Assembly (NCBI GenBank): GCA_963666285.1
Contig: OY762711.1
Origin: Sedimentisphaerales bacterium
GTDB lineage: Bacteria; Planctomycetota; Phycisphaerae; Sedimentisphaerales; SM23-30
Strand: one strand, 5' to 3'
Length of the DNA stretch: 64,000 bases
In this document: in pieces, positions 2,124 through 10,786 of the stretch
Numbering within the stretch: the first letter of the stretch is position 1
Layout of the letters: every line of letters starts with the position of its first letter
The notes under the pieces: model-generated
Database searches by the model: none
Seen by the model: the letters and a program-made list of their open reading frames with translations, nothing else
What the model was told of the DNA's origin: nothing
Translations under genes and position numbers: made by a program

Positions 2124-5100
2124 ATGGTCTTTATGTCCAGAATTATGAGATATGTCGCAATATTAGCTATTGCAACTAGTTTATTAAGTAATTATGCAAT
2201 GGGTCAAAATAGCGGCAGTTTTGAGGACAGTACATCAGTAATCAATGTCTGGCTCAACGGCAAGGAGATTCAATATGAAGCTCAAATGAGTGTTGGATTT
2301 GTCGGTGACGAAGCGATATTTATGCTGAACAAAGATCAGAGTTATGTTTCTCAGTCTGGTCAGCCCAAGCTGCCATTTCAAAAGATTCGCCTGTTACTGC
2401 CTGCAAATGCAGTTATGAGCAGCATTGATATGCATCTGGAAGCCGAATATAGCGAAGTTGAAGGTGAGTGGGATGTGTCCCCGATGCCTCCGGCTTCAAT
2501 TGTAGACAGTAATGGAGAAGAACTGATATGGCCAGAGTCAGCAACAATAATTGATGGTTATGATGCAGATATATATGGAGCTGACAGTTTCTGGCCTGAG
2601 TCAAAGGCTGTAGAAACGAGTTCCGGAAGTTTGAGAAGCTATAAATTGCTGGAACTGGCAATACCATTATTCAGGTATAATCCATCAAGCGGTAATCTGC
2701 AAAAACTGGTTGAGGGAGATTTGACAGTATTGGCCCCGGAGAAAAAAAGTACGACTACAAAGAGCCAGGTTGTCGGTAATGCAGAAATTAACGATCGAGT
2801 TAGCAGTCTTGTATCGAATTATGATCAGTTTAGTGAAGAATATTCAGAGAGTGTTGTTAGCAAGTCTCCAAATCTGAATGACAAAGGGTATGTGATTATT
2901 ACAACCAATACGATTGTGAATGCATCGAGTAAACTGGCAGATTTTGTGGCTCATAAATCAGCAAATTATACAGTCAGTGTAATTACAGAAAGTCAGTATG
3001 GTTCTGGAAGCGGCGATACCGCTTCAAATAACATCAGGGCATGGCTGCAGTCAAACTATGCAAATGAGAGTTACGGTTCGGGCGGAATATTGTATGTCTT
3101 ACTGATAGGTGACCCGCGGACAGACAGCAGTAGTGTTCCTATGAAGTTGTGTCGAGATGACCTCCCGACAGATTATTATTATGCCGAATTGACTGGCGAC
3201 TGGGATAGTAATAATGACGGAGTTTACGGTACAGATGATGACAGTCCGGAAAAATATTTTGAAGTATATACCGGTCGAATTCCATATTACGGCACTATAA
3301 GTGATACCGATAATATCCTGCAGAAGTTTATTGACTATGAGAATTCCACAGATACAGATTGGCGTCGAAATGCATTGCTTCCAATGGTTCCGCTTGATGA
3401 CAGCACGCAGGCTTATCAAATGGGCGAGCAGATTAAGTATAATTGCCTGGAGTCCAGGTTTATAACATCAACTCGAATATATGAAGAGAGCTATGGTTTG
3501 ACTCCTCCGGCAGAATATTTACTTGACGACAGGTTTCCAGCGACTGAATGGAGTGAAAATGCATACGGTATGGTTATCTGGCAGACCCACGGCTGGAGTC
3601 AGGGAGGATCCGGAGTTATTAGCAGCAGTAATACCGGCAGTCTAAACGATGATTATCCAAGTGCGGTATACCAGGGTTCCTGTATGACAGGTAATCCGGA
3701 TGCGACAGACAACCTGGGTTATATGCTATTGAAAAACGGAGCAATTGGTACAATAGCTGCCAGTAGGAATGGTTTATACTGGGTAGGCCAAACGAATTTT
3801 ACAAATACCAACAGTGTGGGCGGTATAGGATATCAATATGCCAAGCGTCTGGCAGAGAAAAAGACACTCGGTCAGGCTATTTTTGACAGTAAGGAATCAC
3901 TTGGTTTCTGGCTGCAGAATTACTATGTATATAATCTATATGGTGACCCGTCTATGGTTATAATGCCAGAAGAACCGGATTTTGGAATAGTACCAACACA
4001 TAGCCTAACGTTTAATACTGTATATGGCGGGATAAGTGATGACTCATTGAGTATTTCACTAGTGAATAATTCATCATCCGGTATGAGTTGGACAGCGAGC
4101 AGGGGTAATGCTACATGGTATGATCTTTCCAGTTTAAGCGGCAGCATAAGTGGAAACAGGACAGCTAACCTAGTTGTAAAATTGAATAGTAATGTTGAGT
4201 CTATGCCGGTTGGTACACATACTGATGTTATCACAGTTAAGAATAATTCAACCGGTCAGACAGAAAGCCGCACAGTTACATTGACAGTGTCGCCAGTGAG
4301 AAAACTGGTACACTGGACGTTTGATGAGACAAGCGGCGAAACGGCTGAAGATGTGTCGGGTAATGGATATACCGGTACACTTGTGAATACAGATTTTAGT
4401 ACGGCGTCAATTGCTGGTAAGTATTCCACAGCAATGCTGTTTGACGGGACAGATGATTATGTTGAGGTTTCAGGTTTCAATGAAGATATGTGCGGTATGA
4501 CTATATCTGTGTGGCTGTATCCTGATGACTGGAATGGTAATCGTCGAATAATCCAGAAGGGCGGCGACGGCAGCGAGTTTCGGTTGTTGCGGGAGCGAGG
4601 ATATTTTGTATTTGAGATAGGCAGTGCCAGGCTGGAATTATCGTCATTGCCTGCAATAGGCAGCTGGACACATGTTGCAGCAGTATATGACGGAAATGAA
4701 ATGAGAGTCTATTATAATAAGGAATTAAAGGGCCGTTTCGTCCGCAGTGGAAAAGTACCAATCAGCAGCAGTACGATGTACATAGGGGCAAAGAATGATA
4801 GTTCAGCAGCTTCTGACTTATTCAAGGGCGGCATGGACGAATTGCAGATATTTAATTATGCCAAGGATGAGTCAGGAATAGAAGCGTTGTATAACGGCAT
4901 TAATCAGCCGGAAGCATTATGTCCGTATCATGGCGCAGGTAATGTGACTCTTATAACTGACTTGGAATGGCGGATGGGAATATCTGCGGTTAACAATGAT
5001 GTCTATTTCGGCAGTAACTATGATTCTGTTTTGAATGCAACAACTAGCTCAGATGAATATAAAGGCAGGCAGACCGGTGAGAGCTATTCGCCAGGAACCC

Positions 5101-7379
5101 TTGTGATGAATTCTGATTATTACTGGAGAATAGACCAGATTGACACAAGCGGCGCAGTTACTAGCGGTCCGGTCTGGAAATTTACAACAGGAAATGGAAC
5201 CGGTGGTATTACCTGGGATGTATGGTATAACATTTCCGGAAATTATGTAACCAATTTGACGGGCAATAGTCGTTATCCAGACAGTCCGGATGATACAGAA
5301 ATTATGCCAACTTTTGAAGGTCCGAGAGATTTTGCAGAGAACTATGGTTCAAAGATGTATGGATTCCTGATACCGCCTGAGACAGGTAATTATACTTTCT
5401 GGATAGCCAGTGATGACTATTCAGAGTTGTGGCTGAGTAGTGATACAGATCCTTCAAATGTTTCCAGGATAGCGTATGTTTCAGGATACAGTGGCTACCA
5501 GGAATGGGAGAAGTATACTTCGCAGAAATCAGCAGCAGTGTATTTGGAAGCCGGAGTGCCATATTATGTAATGGTATTACATAAGGAAGGAGGAGGAGGA
5601 GACTGTGCCTCTGTAGCCTTTGAAAGCCCAAGTTTTGGCAGGAAGCTGATTACAGGCGAGTATATTATGCCATACGCGGAAGATTATAACTGGGGGCCAG
5701 TATTTGAGTCAGGTCGAATAAAAGGTGAGACAGCCTATGAAGGTGATGCCGGATATGCCGGGAGTCTGTCTGAATATGTGTGGAGTGCATCGAGCAGTGA
5801 CTTGACGTTCAGCAAGATTGCCGGCCCTGAGTGGCTGACAGTTGAATCAGATGGAAGTTACCATGGTACAGCATGGGACAAGCATACCGGATTTAATCTA
5901 TTTGAAGTAAAGGCAACCGATTCTAATGGTTTGTCAAGTACTGCGATTTTAGAGATTAAAGTTGTAGATATGTTTACCGGTGAGAATGGCATGCAGGACT
6001 TTTCTCCGTTCAGTGAAGGGTGGATGAGTCAGACACAAGGATATCATGGCTCTGATCTGGATGGAAATAATTCTGTAGATATTGGAGATATGGCAGAATT
6101 TGCCAATAACTGGCTGATAGAAATATCATATGGTATAGAGCGATTCTACTGGCCGTTTGATTATGATGCAGACGAAGTGTTAAATGATTATGAAGGTATA
6201 TTTAATGGAGGAGCTTCTATAACTTATGAAGGTATTACTAAATTGCCAAATGGTGATGGAGCTTTATTATTAGATGGAGTAGATGATGATCTGGCAGTAA
6301 AAGATTTTGTCGGAGTATGTGGTACTTCCAGTCGCACTTGTATGGCTTGGATTAAGACATCTTCAACTGTTGGAGGGACTATTGCTTCTTGGGGGGAAAA
6401 TAATAATGGCGAAAAATGGATGTTTAGGGTTAATGTAGATGGAAGTATTGGTGTAGGTGTATGGGGTGGGTATACACACTCTCATGTGATAGTTAATGAT
6501 GGTGAATGGCACCATGTTGCTGCAGTACTATTTGATGACGGCACACCTGATGTAAATGAGTTGACTCTATATGTTGATGGTAGAAAAGCTGAAAGTTATT
6601 CAAGTGGTAGTAGGGCAATAGATACCGCAAAAGCTGATTTTATTAGGATAGGTTCTTATGTTAATGAGAGCGCCATTGGTTTCTTTGACGGCTATATTGA
6701 TGAATTTAGGCTTTTCAATGAAGCATTAACTTCAGATGACATTAATTCATATGCAGGCTTTGACTTGGATTTGTATTTTCCATTAAATGAGAGTTCAGGC
6801 TCTATTGCTAATGATTATTCATTGTATGGCAGAAATGGAGGATTGGTTAATGGACCAGTTTGGCAGAGTGGCAAAGCATTATTATTTGACGGTGTAGATG
6901 ATTATGTTCTTGTAGATGATTATGTTGGAATTGTTGGTCAGGCAAGCCGTACAAGCATGGCATGGATAAAAACAGATTCAACTCAGTCAGGTGTAGTACT
7001 AAGTTGGGGGCAGAATGACGCTGGTAGAAAATGGATGTTTAGAGTTAATTCAGACGGTAGTTTTGGTGTAGGTGTATGGGATGGATATGTGCATTCAAAT
7101 GCTGTTGTTAATGACGGAAACTGGCATCATATAGCCGCAGTTTTGCAAAATTATGGAGAATCTGATCTAAGTGATATTGTTCTGTATCTTGATGGAAAAG
7201 AAGTATTATCTTATTATTCTAGTGAAGTTACAATTAATACTGCGATTACCCCGGGTGTGCTTATTGGTACGTATGACCACACTTTGAGTTTGGGCTGTTT
7301 TTCGGGGCAATTAACCGATGTTAGGATATATAATAGAGCTCTATCACAAGACGAGGTTGAAGCGGTTGTTACAAATTAG
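2124..7379 (+). CDS. Secreted multidomain C25 (gingipain-like) cysteine peptidase with propeptide, LamG x3, PA14 and dockerin-like modules
   Basis: Signal peptide. Propeptide motif GQPKLP. C25 motifs YVLLIGD, TDYYYAEL, GRIP, catalytic THGW and GSC, and YNLYGDP. LamG motifs FDGTDDYV and WTHVAAV. PA14 motifs YTFWIASDD and HKEGGGGD. Dockerin-like DLDGNNSVDIGDMAEFANNWL. Confidence 0.85.
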   Translation: MVFMSRIMRYVAILAIATSLLSNYAMGQNSGSFEDSTSVINVWLNGKEIQYEAQMSVGFVGDEAIFMLNKDQSYVSQSGQPKLPFQKIRLLLPANAVMSSIDMHLEAEYSEVEGEWDVSPMPPASIVDSNGEELIWPESATIIDGYDADIYGADSFWPESKAVETSSGSLRSYKLLELAIPLFRYNPSSGNLQKLVEGDLTVLAPEKKSTTTKSQVVGNAEINDRVSSLVSNYDQFSEEYSESVVSKSPNLNDKGYVIITTNTIVNASSKLADFVAHKSANYTVSVITESQYGSGSGDTASNNIRAWLQSNYANESYGSGGILYVLLIGDPRTDSSSVPMKLCRDDLPTDYYYAELTGDWDSNNDGVYGTDDDSPEKYFEVYTGRIPYYGTISDTDNILQKFIDYENSTDTDWRRNALLPMVPLDDSTQAYQMGEQIKYNCLESRFITSTRIYEESYGLTPPAEYLLDDRFPATEWSENAYGMVIWQTHGWSQGGSGVISSSNTGSLNDDYPSAVYQGSCMTGNPDATDNLGYMLLKNGAIGTIAASRNGLYWVGQTNFTNTNSVGGIGYQYAKRLAEKKTLGQAIFDSKESLGFWLQNYYVYNLYGDPSMVIMPEEPDFGIVPTHSLTFNTVYGGISDDSLSISLVNNSSSGMSWTASRGNATWYDLSSLSGSISGNRTANLVVKLNSNVESMPVGTHTDVITVKNNSTGQTESRTVTLTVSPVRKLVHWTFDETSGETAEDVSGNGYTGTLVNTDFSTASIAGKYSTAMLFDGTDDYVEVSGFNEDMCGMTISVWLYPDDWNGNRRIIQKGGDGSEFRLLRERGYFVFEIGSARLELSSLPAIGSWTHVAAVYDGNEMRVYYNKELKGRFVRSGKVPISSSTMYIGAKNDSSAASDLFKGGMDELQIFNYAKDESGIEALYNGINQPEALCPYHGAGNVTLITDLEWRMGISAVNNDVYFGSNYDSVLNATTSSDEYKGRQTGESYSPGTLVMNSDYYWRIDQIDTSGAVTSGPVWKFTTGNGTGGITWDVWYNISGNYVTNLTGNSRYPDSPDDTEIMPTFEGPRDFAENYGSKMYGFLIPPETGNYTFWIASDDYSELWLSSDTDPSNVSRIAYVSGYSGYQEWEKYTSQKSAAVYLEAGVPYYVMVLHKEGGGGDCASVAFESPSFGRKLITGEYIMPYAEDYNWGPVFESGRIKGETAYEGDAGYAGSLSEYVWSASSSDLTFSKIAGPEWLTVESDGSYHGTAWDKHTGFNLFEVKATDSNGLSSTAILEIKVVDMFTGENGMQDFSPFSEGWMSQTQGYHGSDLDGNNSVDIGDMAEFANNWLIEISYGIERFYWPFDYDADEVLNDYEGIFNGGASITYEGITKLPNGDGALLLDGVDDDLAVKDFVGVCGTSSRTCMAWIKTSSTVGGTIASWGENNNGEKWMFRVNVDGSIGVGVWGGYTHSHVIVNDGEWHHVAAVLFDDGTPDVNELTLYVDGRKAESYSSGSRAIDTAKADFIRIGSYVNESAIGFFDGYIDEFRLFNEALTSDDINSYAGFDLDLYFPLNESSGSIANDYSLYGRNGGLVNGPVWQSGKALLFDGVDDYVLVDDYVGIVGQASRTSMAWIKTDSTQSGVVLSWGQNDAGRKWMFRVNSDGSFGVGVWDGYVHSNAVVNDGNWHHIAAVLQNYGESDLSDIVLYLDGKEVLSYYSSEVTINTAITPGVLIGTYDHTLSLGCFSGQLTDVRIYNRALSQDEVEAVVTN

Positions 7380-7403: not shown

Positions 7404-7434
7404 AAAAAGCTCTGCTGATATGGCAGAGCTTTTT
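7404..7434. terminator. Bidirectional intrinsic terminator
   Basis: AAAAAGCTCTGC...GCAGAGCTTTTT lies between convergent genes. Confidence 0.85.
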
Positions 7435-7464: not shown

Positions 7465-8310
7465 TTATTTTAGTAATATATCGCCGAAACTGGTGGCGGC
7501 TACGATATTACCAGAACCGTTACCGATTTTCCCTTTCATGTTTTCTTTATTGATAGAACCAGATATGGTAACGGGTTTGTCGCATGTGACTTTGCCGAAA
7601 GAAGTTGACAGTTTTACATTTCCGGCATAATTATCCAGATTGCATATCTTGATATTGCCGTAAGATGTATTCAAATTGCAGTTGAAGTCTTCCGGGAGGT
7701 CGGATCCTGAGAAGTTGATACCGCCAAAAGATGTATTTACTTTTGCTGTCTTGCAGTGATGGTTTTCAACATTGACAGTACCGTATGAGGTGTTCAGGTC
7801 AGGGTTACCTTTACAGTTTTTGACTGATATGTCACCGAAACTTGTATCAGCTTTAACAGGTTTATTGATATTTTCAATAGAAACTTTACCAAAAGAAGTG
7901 TTAAGGTCGAGAGTAGTGCCAGTAGCGAGAGTTACAATGAAGCCGGCTCCGATAGTTTCATTATGTTCTTTTGAGATATTGCATTTTGGTTTAGCGATGA
8001 TTTTGTCACCGCTGATTTCTATGATAATCTCGGTATTATCTGCCAGTTCCCGGGCTCTTTCCTTAGTTTTTGCCCTTGCGATGATTTTGCCGGAGATTTC
8101 GCACTTATCAGTATCGCTACCGGTGATTTTAATATCTCCGAACTGGGTGTCGCAGGCAAATGTTTTGCCGGAGGTGTTTTCAGCGGTCATTTCAAACGGT
8201 TTTTTTACCTCTTCTTTACATGAATCGCTGCATCCGTTGATATAAATGCAGCCGCCCATTGATATAGAGACGAGAATAAGCAACAGGGAAATCTTAATAA
8301 GTTTGAACAT
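7465..8310 (-). CDS. DUF4097-family beta-strand repeat lipoprotein
   Basis: Lipobox SMGG-C. Repeated (N/D)TS(F/Y)G-x-(I/V) units typical of DUF4097/adhesin-like beta-solenoids. Confidence 0.8.
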   Translation of the reverse strand: MFKLIKISLLLILVSISMGGCIYINGCSDSCKEEVKKPFEMTAENTSGKTFACDTQFGDIKITGSDTDKCEISGKIIARAKTKERARELADNTEIIIEISGDKIIAKPKCNISKEHNETIGAGFIVTLATGTTLDLNTSFGKVSIENINKPVKADTSFGDISVKNCKGNPDLNTSYGTVNVENHHCKTAKVNTSFGGINFSGSDLPEDFNCNLNTSYGNIKICNLDNYAGNVKLSTSFGKVTCDKPVTISGSINKENMKGKIGNGSGNIVAATSFGDILLK

Positions 8311-8367
8311 GGTTTGACTCCTATTCCAAAAAAGTTTTATAAACTATATATTCCACACAACAATACA

Positions 8368-8393
8368 GTCGAACAGATAGAAAAAAAATATCA
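8368..8393 (-). promoter_or_regulatory. Putative ECF sigma promoter of the DUF4097 gene
   Basis: Minus strand TGATAT-N16-CGAC. The spacer has a T-tract plus CTATC, as does the copy at 9103-9128. Confidence 0.5.
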
Positions 8394-8445
8394 TAATATT
8401 TTGGTAATTTATCTGGTACGATTTATGCTTCGCATCTTATACAAG

Positions 8446-8645
8446 GCGTACTTTTGACTGTTCAGCGTTAACCGCAAAGGTCAGAACAGGGCCAACTAAG
8501 TGAAAAACGAATAATGAAAAGTGAAAAATTAACATTAAGGTGTTCAACTATCGTCTCACGCTTTGTTTAAAACATAAGCGTGGCAGGAAGGCCCTTTTAG
8601 GCGTTTATTGCAACTTGAAAAGTGCGAAAGTAAACTATCTGATAT
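8446..8645 (+). repeat. Dispersed ~200 bp repeat, family A copy 1 (centre replaced by a family B element)
   Basis: Its reverse complement matches both ends of 52645-52826, for example ATAGTTTACTTT...AAGTTGCAA.AAACGCCTAAAAGGGCCTTCCTGC and GGCCCTGTTCTG.CCTTTGCG...CAGTCAAAAGT.CG. Confidence 0.85.
8497..8572 (+). repeat. Short A-rich heptamer plus hairpin-like element, family B copy 1
   Basis: Aligns with 10784-10853: TAAGTGAAAAAC...AAAAGT.AAAAATT...GG.GTTC..CTATCG.CTCAC..TTTGTTTAAA. Confidence 0.8.
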
Positions 8646-8652
8646 ATTGAAT

Positions 8653-8736
8653 CTATCCAATATAAATGCAACCGCCCATAGCAAGAAGGGTAGTTACTGC
8701 AGCAATCGCGAGGAAAAGCAATTTTGATAATTTCAT
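8653..8736 (-). CDS. 27-aa micro-lipoprotein MKLSKLLFLAIAAVTTLLAMGG-CIYIG
   Basis: Manual translation. AGGAG RBS, basic n-region, hydrophobic h-region, lipobox Cys23, TAG stop at 8653-8655. Confidence 0.7.
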   Translation of the reverse strand: MKLSKLLFLAIAAVTTLLAMGGCIYIG

Positions 8737-8780
8737 AATAAGCTCCTGATAAAAAAAGGTTAAATGATTCTTAAGGTTCA

Positions 8781-8823
8781 TAATACCTCTCAAACTGACC
8801 GATGGCCAGTTTGAGAGGTATTA
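8781..8823. other. Perfect 17-bp inverted repeat (stem-loop) between the two micro-lipoprotein genes
   Basis: TAATACCTCTCAAACTG-N9-CAGTTTGAGAGGTATTA. Confidence 0.9.
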
Positions 8824-8868
8824 GGTATTAGTTATTTGGTATTAGGTAAGGTTTGCCGCAAAGCGGCA
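8817..8868 (+). repeat. GGTATTA heptamer run followed by a GC hairpin
   Basis: GGTATTA GGTATTA GTTATTT GGTATTA GGTAAGG, then TGCCGC-AAA-GCGGCA. Confidence 0.75.
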
Positions 8869-8955
8869 GGCTAATTAAATCATTAATGTAACAATTTGCA
8901 TTGAATTATGTTACCACAATAAAAAATGTAAAATCGGTCACTTTGAGTAATTAAT

Positions 8956-9039
8956 TTAACTGATATGAATACATCCACTTGAAGCGAGCGATAAAACAAC
9001 AAACAGTAATGCCAGGAAAAGTTTTTTAATTGTATTCAT
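8956..9039 (-). CDS. 27-aa micro-lipoprotein MNTIKKLFLALLFVVLSLASSG-CIHIS
   Basis: Manual translation. GGAG RBS, signal peptide II architecture, Cys23, TAA stop at 8956-8958. Confidence 0.7.
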   Translation of the reverse strand: MNTIKKLFLALLFVVLSLASSGCIHIS

Positions 9040-9102
9040 GGTAAATCTCCATAAGTAAATAACATACATAATTACACGTCAAGGGTAGATTATAATATAT
9101 TT

Positions 9103-9128
9103 GACGTGTTTGATAGGAAAAAGTTACA
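9103..9128 (-). promoter_or_regulatory. Putative ECF sigma promoter upstream of the micro-lipoprotein genes
   Basis: Minus strand TGTAAC-N16-CGTC, the architecture of Bacillus SigX/SigM/SigW-type promoters. It overlaps an ACACGTCAA-N18-TTGACGTGT inverted repeat (9074-9109). Confidence 0.6.
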
Positions 9129-9418
9129 AAAATAATTATTTTTTTGCAAAAAAGTGATGATTACTTAGGTTTTTAGTTCAAATAAGAAACTAAGTAATAT
9201 GCGAATTCTGTTTGGGTATACTTTATTTTTCAATTATTTGTAAATTGGAACTCTGGTGAGATTATGTAGAAAAACAATTGTTTCCCGTACTTTATTGCGT
9301 TGCAGAAAGAATGTTATTCCTTATAATGTAAAGTGTTAAATCTAATGGCAATTTCAGAGGTAATCAAAAGTTTTTGATCATTGATAAAAGTAATAATTTG
9401 TGAAAGAGTTGATTCCTA

Positions 9419-10786
9419 ATGAAAAAGATAACAATTTCTTTACTATTGTTTGTGATTGGTACGGTTTTGAATGCAGCCGGAGGTTCCAAGCCGAATGTTA
9501 TATATATCCTGGCTGATGATCTGGGCTATGGCGATTTGAGCTGCTATGGCCAGACCAAGCTTCAGACGCCTAATATCGACCGCCTGGCTGATGAAGGTAT
9601 GAAGTTTACCGCCCATTATTCCGGTAATACAGTATGTTCGCCGTCACGTGCGGTGTTAATGACAGGTATGCATGCCGGACATTGCCATGTTCGCGGGAAT
9701 ATTGGAGAGGCGGGATGTGCCCTTGACCCTGATATGGCGGTGCTGGCAGAGTTGTATAAGCAGGCGGGCTATGCGACCGGAGCATACGGCAAATGGGGGC
9801 TGGGCGTAACCTGTGCCGGCGGCAATCAAAGTCCGTTGAAGCATGGTTTTGATGAGTATGCCGGGTGGAAGAGCCAGAGTATTGCACATACCTACTATCC
9901 GTCAAGTATAATAGTAAACGATCAGGAGATACCATTAGCTGAGGGGACATATATTCACGATATACTAATGAATATGGTTTATAATTTTATCGAGAGAAAT
10001 GCCAAGGCAGAAAAGCCGTTTTTCTGTTATGTGCCGACGGCGATACCTCATGCGGCGATGCATGCCCCTAAAGAATTGCATGAGAAATGGCGAAAGGTGT
10101 TTCCGCAGTTTGATAATAGGATAGGTCGGTATGGAACAGGCAGAAATGATGAGAAATGTGCTGATGTTGTTAATCCGATAGCGGGTTTTGCGGCGATGAT
10201 AGAGCATCTGGATGATAATGTCGGTCATATACTGAACATGCTAGAGGAGCTGGGAATCGATGATAATACAATTGTGATGTTTGCCAGTGATAACGGAGCG
10301 CATGCCGAGGGCGGTCATGATATGCGGTTCTGGAACTCAACCGGCGGCCTGCGTGGTATGAAGCGTGATATGCATGAAGGCGGTATCAGGAGCCCGTTTT
10401 TGGCACGCTGGCCGGGAGTTGTTGCCGAGGGCAGTATTAGCGATCATATAAGTGCGTTCTGGGATGTAATGGCAACCTCGGCTGATCTGCTGGGAGTGGC
10501 GGTTCCTGGGCAATGTGATGGGATATCGTTTCTACCTACTCTGACGGGGCATCCAGAAAAGCAGAAGCAGCATGAATACCTGTACTGGGAGTTTCATAAG
10601 GGCCGGAATCTGTTTTCGCGTGCATTGCGGATGGGAAAATGGAAGGTGTACCTGGAAGAAGGCAAACCGATAGAGCTGTTTGACCTGGAGAATGATCCCT
10701 ATGAAAAGAATGATATTGCTGCCGATAATCCTGAAGTGGTGAAAAAGGCTGAGAAGTATATGAAAGAGGCGAGTAAACCAATTTAA
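9419..10786 (+). CDS. Arylsulfatase (formylglycine-dependent, S1 family)
   Basis: Signal peptide. Motifs KPNVIYILADDLG, CSPSRAVLMTG, GKWGLG and SDNG. Confidence 0.95.
   Translation: MKKITISLLLFVIGTVLNAAGGSKPNVIYILADDLGYGDLSCYGQTKLQTPNIDRLADEGMKFTAHYSGNTVCSPSRAVLMTGMHAGHCHVRGNIGEAGCALDPDMAVLAELYKQAGYATGAYGKWGLGVTCAGGNQSPLKHGFDEYAGWKSQSIAHTYYPSSIIVNDQEIPLAEGTYIHDILMNMVYNFIERNAKAEKPFFCYVPTAIPHAAMHAPKELHEKWRKVFPQFDNRIGRYGTGRNDEKCADVVNPIAGFAAMIEHLDDNVGHILNMLEELGIDDNTIVMFASDNGAHAEGGHDMRFWNSTGGLRGMKRDMHEGGIRSPFLARWPGVVAEGSISDHISAFWDVMATSADLLGVAVPGQCDGISFLPTLTGHPEKQKQHEYLYWEFHKGRNLFSRALRMGKWKVYLEEGKPIELFDLENDPYEKNDIAADNPEVVKKAEKYMKEASKPI

Follow-up and report, generated by a model that had tools for sequence, protein, structure and literature searches.

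The window analyzed here is a 64,000-nucleotide (nt) stretch of the genome of a Sedimentisphaerales bacterium (assembly GCA_963666285.1, contig OY762711.1; the genome is called G000 below). The subject is a pair of very small predicted lipoprotein genes on the minus strand, 5' of a gene for a larger lipoprotein with a DUF4097/Toastrack domain. A preliminary description, made from the sequence alone, had reported two open reading frames (ORFs) of 27 amino acids (aa), each with its own Shine-Dalgarno (SD) site, a cysteine at position 23 and a stop four residues further on, and these proved exact. ORF1 (8956-9039) encodes MNTIKKLFLALLFVVLSLASSG-CIHIS and ORF2 (8653-8736) encodes MKLSKLLFLAIAAVTTLLAMGG-CIYIG. 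The features of the locus are as follows.

9101..9128, minus strand: predicted promoter of the extracytoplasmic function (ECF) sigma type, with -35 TGTAAC (9128-9123), a 16-nt spacer and -10 CGTCAA (9106-9101), 89 nt 5' of ORF1
9047..9050, minus strand: SD site (GGAG) of ORF1, from the sequence
8956..9039, minus strand: micro-lipoprotein ORF1, 27 aa, predicted mature lipopeptide CIHIS, found by the scans and the family profile
8775..8952, no strand: spacer, largely dispersed genome repeats (~40-110 genome copies), not DUF4097-derived
8743..8747, minus strand: SD site (AGGAG) of ORF2, from the sequence
8653..8736, minus strand: micro-lipoprotein ORF2, 27 aa, predicted mature lipopeptide CIYIG, found by the scans
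8410..8640, no strand: second spacer, again of dispersed repeats (each position overlapped by ~60-160 genome hits), with high contig depth
7465..8310, minus strand: DUF4097/Toastrack beta-solenoid lipoprotein, 281 aa, mature N-terminus CIYING, own SD site at 8322-8318
7404..7434, no strand: bidirectional intrinsic-terminator-like hairpin closing the unit, from hairpin prediction

Both precursors display a basic n-region, a hydrophobic stretch and Gly-Cys at positions 22-23, and their SD sites lie 6-7 nt 5' of the ATG. The assignment as lipoproteins follows from a heuristic filter of our own (basic n-region, hydrophobic h-region, lipobox ending [GA]-Cys), which both ORFs satisfy. A genome-wide scan of G000 for an ATG, an SD site, n- and h-regions, a lipobox Cys and a tail of at most 15 aa returned three matches, namely ORF1, ORF2 and one poor candidate. 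With a stricter rule (ATG, SD, signal, C-[IVL]-x-[IV], tail of at most 9 aa), only ORF1 and ORF2 were recovered from the 6.15-Mb main contig C1, and all four shuffles returned 0. When the SD requirement was relaxed, 18 candidates appeared, most of them implausible, with tails as long as 40 aa. Neither peptide has a Pfam match at E up to 1. None of the eight micro ORFs looked up is present in a collection of 15 billion proteins, indicating that such genes are invisible to standard annotation. Public contigs from three runs carry ORF1, the promoter and the DUF4097 gene at 0 differences and leave ORF2 without contig cover; these runs may equal the source sample and are not independent support.

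ORF1 and ORF2 almost certainly belong to a family of genuine, selected genes. The family comprises 18 intact ORFs in 16 genomes, spanning 7 genera and 3 families of Sedimentisphaerales. DUF4097 matches occur in 18 of 40 relatives, and a lipobox scan of the 1.5-kb flanks of these genes identified five micro ORFs, two in G001 and one each in G002, G003 and G017. Those five were found by position and the general lipobox filter alone, without the motif. A profile built from seven ORFs was searched in 201 genomes and 401 class genomes, and a stop-anchored DNA pattern and a promoter-plus-motif pattern were both applied to one set of 401 genomes of the order. These searches, together with inspection, added G102, G140, G124, G063, G126, G156, G192, G652, G166, G120 and G136. 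Of 20 regions fetched, eleven (e.g., G139, G549, G618, G078, G582 and G687) had no family micro ORF and were dropped.

Family precursors measure 23-28 aa, with predicted mature parts of 5-8 aa (eight of 5, eight of 6 and two of 8). Gly at -1 and Cys at +1 occur in 18/18 and Gly at +5 in 11/18. Ile or Val at +2 and +4 also occurs in 18/18, an invariance that is partly circular for the 11 members from motif-based searches, three of which were found via the promoter itself. TAA, TGA and TAG all serve as stops. Signal regions diverge strongly among members, and the Gly-Cys and mature motif stay fixed. Orthologous micro-ORF pairs are under purifying selection. The uncorrected ratio of non-synonymous to synonymous change (pN/pS) was 0.22, 0.63, 0.49, 0.39 and 0.27 in the five pairs computed. 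Three independent pairs pooled gave changes at ~29 of 49 synonymous versus 27 of 155 non-synonymous sites (Fisher p 6e-8), distributed as 16/9/31 over codon positions 1/2/3 in 68 codons. The preliminary description had proposed looking for conserved small ORFs near DUF4097 genes in related genomes; such ORFs are there, with the selective signature expected of coding sequence.

Distribution beyond the order was surveyed with searches of limited sensitivity. Outside the order, neither the class-wide profile (401 genomes; 14 of 30 loci inspected) nor the promoter-plus-motif pattern applied across the phylum (301 genomes) turned up a mature part of at most 9 residues; the latter gave four matches, of which two fell outside the order and had no lipoprotein ORF. 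No micro ORF was seen at 24 non-planctomycete DUF4097-like loci, and when metagenomes were scanned with one DUF4097 protein, none of the 78 candidates was confirmed. In metagenomes, a strict DNA pattern for the five residues matched 18 times, at about chance level, and 17 of these matches were taken as chance because they lack a signal-peptide ORF. The remaining one, on a metagenome contig (L185:609-713), is a 34-aa ORF ending AG-CIVIG-stop, which may itself be chance.

The promoter element TGTAAC-16 nt-CGTC at 9128-9101 scores 10/10, a value reached in 0 of 300 shuffles. A match of at least 9/10 lies within 260 nt 5' of 9 of 16 micro ORFs, or at 5 of 8 independent loci, against a background of 26 of 2894 ORFs in G000 (0.9%) and 2 of 146 ORFs of other loci, by a score that was defined after these sequences had been seen. 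The count takes in the frameshifted G096 copy and leaves out G057, which belongs to a different class. In G000, the motif with a 16-nt spacer has 17 intergenic matches, versus 1-5 for spacers of 14, 15, 17 or 18 nt, and it precedes several envelope-type genes. About 24 ECF-like sigma factor matches are encoded in the same genome. The promoter of ORF1 is probably an ECF-type, envelope-stress element, as judged from its sequence, and the envelope-stress connection raised in the preliminary description gains support from it. The other motif sites in G000 (C1 305730, 1236936, 1354182, 4532823, 5948307 and others) outline a putative ECF regulon. Labeled by inspection, it takes in an efflux-like operon and genes for a glycine-rich lipoprotein, for a 4613-aa protein whose start resembles BlaR1 and for other secreted proteins.

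The downstream protein of the window begins ...SMGG-CIYING, as had been read earlier, and matches PF13349 (40.7 bits versus a cut-off of 22.9; E 2.3e-10). Its AlphaFold2 model is a confident beta-solenoid (pLDDT, the per-residue model confidence, 92), with 4QRK and 3PET as best fold matches. Partnership with DUF4097 is nevertheless not exclusive. Micro ORFs sit 5' of genes from three lipoprotein families with no relation to one another: DUF4097, an alpha-helical family of ~165 aa and one of ~130 aa whose sequence looks beta-rich. Pfam has no match for either of the last two. The helical partner has no fold match at E 0.001 or better, and the Atlas search gave one unnamed Planctomycetota cluster. 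In 12 of the 14 genomes where it is visible, the next full-length lipoprotein begins C-[IVL]-x-[IV], a start found in 3 of 141 long lipoprotein candidates of G000. The exceptions are G192, whose partner starts CIVAIG, and G017, where a CGSK lipoprotein stands between the micro ORF and a motif-bearing DUF4097 protein. In the ~130-aa family, two adjacent paralogues have a common core, and the motif appears only in the one behind the promoter and micro ORF. Separately, in G023, which has no micro ORF, three consecutive genes encode motif-like lipoproteins of 40, 147 and 297 mature residues.

The preliminary description had suggested, as one possibility, that the lipopeptides could serve the DUF4097 solenoid as a donor or competitor beta-strand. 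A role specific to that solenoid is not supported, as the same kind of ORF precedes alpha-helical and beta-rich families, most of the other genomes with a DUF4097 match have no such ORF nearby, and CIYING is unstructured in the model. Residues 1-10 of the DUF4097 model, which hold this segment, have pLDDT ~50 and form no strand. In both the DUF4097 and the helical protein, AlphaFold predicts confident cores and a low-confidence N-terminal motif without secondary structure. On these grounds, donor-strand complementation of DUF4097 finds no support. An unstructured motif in both models, shared by unrelated folds, argues for C-[IV]-x-[IV]-G as a portable lipid-proximal module, and the motif is not DUF4097-specific.

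The ribosomally encoded lipo-pentapeptides proposed at the outset are the best reading of what ORF1 and ORF2 would make, because the ORFs are no truncation relics but conserved genes under purifying selection. The micro-ORF products are probably processed to lipopeptides, and Lgt, LspA and Lnt are all encoded in G000 above family cut-off. A chain of 27 aa has to be targeted post-translationally. In the proposed sequence of events, the ECF-sigma promoter, probably active in envelope stress, would drive transcription of ORF1 and ORF2, which lie ahead of the gene for the DUF4097 lipoprotein. The precursors would reach the inner membrane after translation, where Lgt would lipidate them, LspA would cut them and Lnt would N-acylate the products, yielding triacyl-CIHIS and triacyl-CIYIG. 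With Ile in alternation at +2 and +4 and a bulky residue at +3, the segment would suit a beta-strand at the surface of the bilayer. C-[IV]-x-[IV]-G may act as a fold-independent lipid-proximal strand, present also at the N-terminus of co-expressed lipoproteins of unrelated folds, and the micro-lipopeptides would be that strand module with nothing attached. Most likely, strands would pair at the membrane surface, lipopeptides with one another and with motif-bearing lipoproteins. Such pairing could nucleate a lipoprotein assembly induced by stress, space its members or fix their stoichiometry. We give this co-assembly of lipopeptides with motif-bearing lipoproteins a probability of roughly 40%. 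A more ambitious form is a doubtful extension of it. Here, natural lipoproteins consisting of an anchor and four to seven residues, made by no dedicated enzyme, would use a beta-strand docking code that co-polymerizes unrelated folds and bare filler lipopeptides into a stress-induced lattice on the membrane surface.

Several observations weigh against co-assembly, beyond the partial circularity of the motif count and the after-the-fact promoter score already given. No micro ORF lies within ~1.5 kb in 14 of the 18 other genomes with a DUF4097 match, and G044 and G543 have the promoter and a motif-bearing DUF4097 protein without a micro ORF; the micro ORF is hence dispensable. The G096 copy is frameshifted, and the G652 copy has no downstream lipoprotein. 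Seven of the 16 micro ORFs (the G001-G003 copies, ORF2, G126 and G652) show no promoter match. Within the window, repeats and a strong hairpin between the genes may uncouple their transcription. Finally, none of the LolA families PF03548, PF17131 and PF16584 is above cut-off in G000, which is 97% complete, and divergent carriers are possible.

The rival that survives best, although unlikely, holds that the motif is the address or ligand of a separate protein, such as a lipoprotein transporter, a beta-barrel edge like that of LptD for LptM, or a sensor kinase. The lipopeptide would then be its rivet, competitor or trafficking sentinel. The N-terminal 9 residues of LptM suffice for action on LptD (10.1101/2025.01.03.631273), and the PF13349 domain of LiaX has been suggested to modulate LiaFSR (PMC10269926). 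The micro ORFs of G001-G003 follow a histidine-kinase gene with an OmpR-type regulator near, the G001 copy starting one base past the kinase stop. In G000, however, kinase and regulator are ~0.5 Mb away, and the f6 and f7 copies adjoin hisA/guaB-like, MscS or ClpB-like genes, with no receptor gene in common. The G000 cluster itself (C1:1899747-1909017) encodes a TPR protein, a histidine kinase and a response regulator, and is orthologous to the micro-ORF and DUF4097 cluster of G001-G003. Here, other small membrane ORFs occupy the slot, and an ECF-like motif lies near the end of the kinase gene.

Less probable is an uncleaved single-helix membrane microprotein of 23-28 aa, possibly diacylglycerylated, in which the helix would be functional. 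Handling by LspA or Lol may need more than the four residues that follow the Cys, the whole 27-aa chain is shorter than the ribosome tunnel, and a second class of micro ORF with the charged tail CKKGG adjoins an ion-channel gene. Yet the helix diverges while the Gly-Cys and mature motif are fixed, the opposite of what a functional helix would predict. Slightly lower still stands a bulk, gene-encoded amino-lipid that would alter membrane packing under stress. The very hydrophobic mature part and the ECF promoter fit this, as do the signal-peptide-bearing and lipoprotein genes among the other G000 genes behind the promoter motif, but the motif in neighboring large lipoproteins at 12 of 14 loci is left unexplained.

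A cis-acting leader, which in the manner of SecM or MifM would make translation of the lipoprotein encoded downstream depend on the state of secretion or lipidation, is quite improbable. The micro ORF is usually the first gene behind the promoter and lies 12-36 nt from its partner at nine loci. Against this, the spacing is 342-645 nt in the window and ~90 nt in G102 and G140, the G652 copy stands alone, and a 27-aa chain cannot reach the translocon while ribosome-bound. The wide spacing in the window arises because its spacers are dispersed repeats with tens to more than 100 genome copies.

The view that the ORFs are non-functional remnants of lipoprotein 5' ends, left by duplication or truncation, is largely refuted for their present-day status and is very improbable. 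An origin by truncation is plausible, since 19 of 20 nt at the lipobox of ORF2 recur in the DUF4097 gene (repeat D7). The G001a product (CIYINTCS) also resembles the window DUF4097 start, and one copy is frameshifted. The preliminary description had itself named truncation relics of DUF4097 paralogues as one danger to its reading, and this concern is not borne out. The DUF4097 profile finds no remnant after the micro-ORF stops and matches only the intact downstream genes. Signal regions are just 31-65% identical in DNA to those of their own partners, and selection is purifying, with length fixed across the 7 genera. Least probable of all is a released signal peptide acting as a pheromone, as with the enterococcal lipoprotein-derived pheromones and as the preliminary description had also suggested: the precursor is nearly all signal peptide, but this region has no conserved stretch and varies freely, whereas the mature motif stays fixed.

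The spacers at 8410-8640 and 8775-8952 contain several families of short dispersed intergenic repeats, some palindromic, at ~40-160 genome hits per position, and the latter holds an inverted repeat with 20-bp arms at 8781-8823. Rfam has no match in 8200-9500, and there is no plasmid match. A family scan of the neighboring proteins identified a C25 peptidase-like protein, DUF4097 and a sulfatase. The first is a 1751-aa secreted protein (2124-7379) with a gingipain-like C25 peptidase, PA14 and LamG, convergent on the DUF4097 gene. Elsewhere in G000 (C1:4690392-4690487), a 31-aa lipoprotein-like ORF (mature CIFVSK..., 17 aa) precedes a run of lipoprotein genes, the next of which starts CILD. Other Phycisphaerae encode short lipoproteins with 17-103 mature aa, SHOCT or BamE-like (L113:1501-1701, L110:1348-1566, L121:1462-1587 and L108:1492-1866). 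Their similar hydrophobic start may mean that such a tether is wider than the micro ORFs.

The second micro-lipoprotein class has a signal followed by G-CKKGG-stop (CKKNGGG in one case). It occurs in six of seven matching genomes among 14 of the genus of G057 (L245:1626-1700, L246:1626-1700, L247:1531-1614, L248:1629-1706, L249:1549-1626 and L250:1531-1605), where it precedes an ion-channel gene (PF00520) and in most cases diverges from an outer-membrane beta-barrel gene. G057 shows no ECF motif. As this class is conserved in another genus of the same order, the micro-lipoprotein architecture recurs, which could point to a whole layer of lipopeptide genes below 30 aa that gene callers miss. 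If the proposal is true, the natural lower size limit of bacterial lipoproteins would be five residues, and how short a substrate Sec, Lgt, LspA, Lnt and Lol accept becomes testable. The residues that directly follow the lipidated Cys, usually seen as a tether or sorting signal, could then be a separately encoded interaction module.

With regard to known systems, this is a real, conserved family of minimal lipoprotein genes that appears to be undescribed. The preliminary description knew of no system of this form, and none was found in the open literature, where the searches met no account of a natural lipoprotein whose mature part has 5-8 residues; most subscription papers and supplements lie outside that literature, and small-protein catalogues could list such ORFs. 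Toastrack/DUF4097 proteins (LiaG, YvlB and LiaX) are associated with two-component systems and sigma factors (10.1101/2020.09.24.301986), and the window protein has the same domain and fold. Unlike the Toastrack proteins of that study, which are treated as intracellular, it is a lipoprotein, and the micro ORFs accompany unrelated folds too. The passages of that study considered here do not mention an upstream micro-lipoprotein. The promoter resembles those of the Bacillus sigma-W/X/M/V regulons, as B. subtilis ECF promoters take the form tgaAAC ... CGTC (PMC5758882), although the window host belongs to a different phylum.

DAG-RiPPs are likewise ribosomal peptides that take the Lgt/LspA/Lnt lipidation route, but they need MNIO enzymes and were mined at 50-160 aa (PMC13056109), whereas the micro ORFs encode precursors of 23-28 aa. 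No MNIO-like gene was noted beside the micro ORFs among the window neighbors and 17 scanned proteins of related loci. Membership in that class was rejected, with no adjacent MNIO among the window neighbors and a mature part of five residues. Membership in LptM/YifL was also rejected, as the motif is C-[IV]-x-[IV]-G and not of the CGLKGPLYF type, without a Pfam match at E up to 1. Natural LptM has 67 aa. It is nonetheless the closest parallel, since in LptM, too, a lipid-anchored N-terminal segment carries the function. LptM truncated to 9 residues (C20-F28) works (10.1101/2025.01.03.631273), so very short mature lipoproteins can be made, and the authors of that study predict very short lipoproteins that are almost all signal sequence, the sole match for this idea in the literature searched. 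The LptM 9-mer is engineered, with the motif CGLKGPLYF and the target LptD, whereas the micro ORFs stop naturally at +6 to +9 and would be an example of what those authors predicted.

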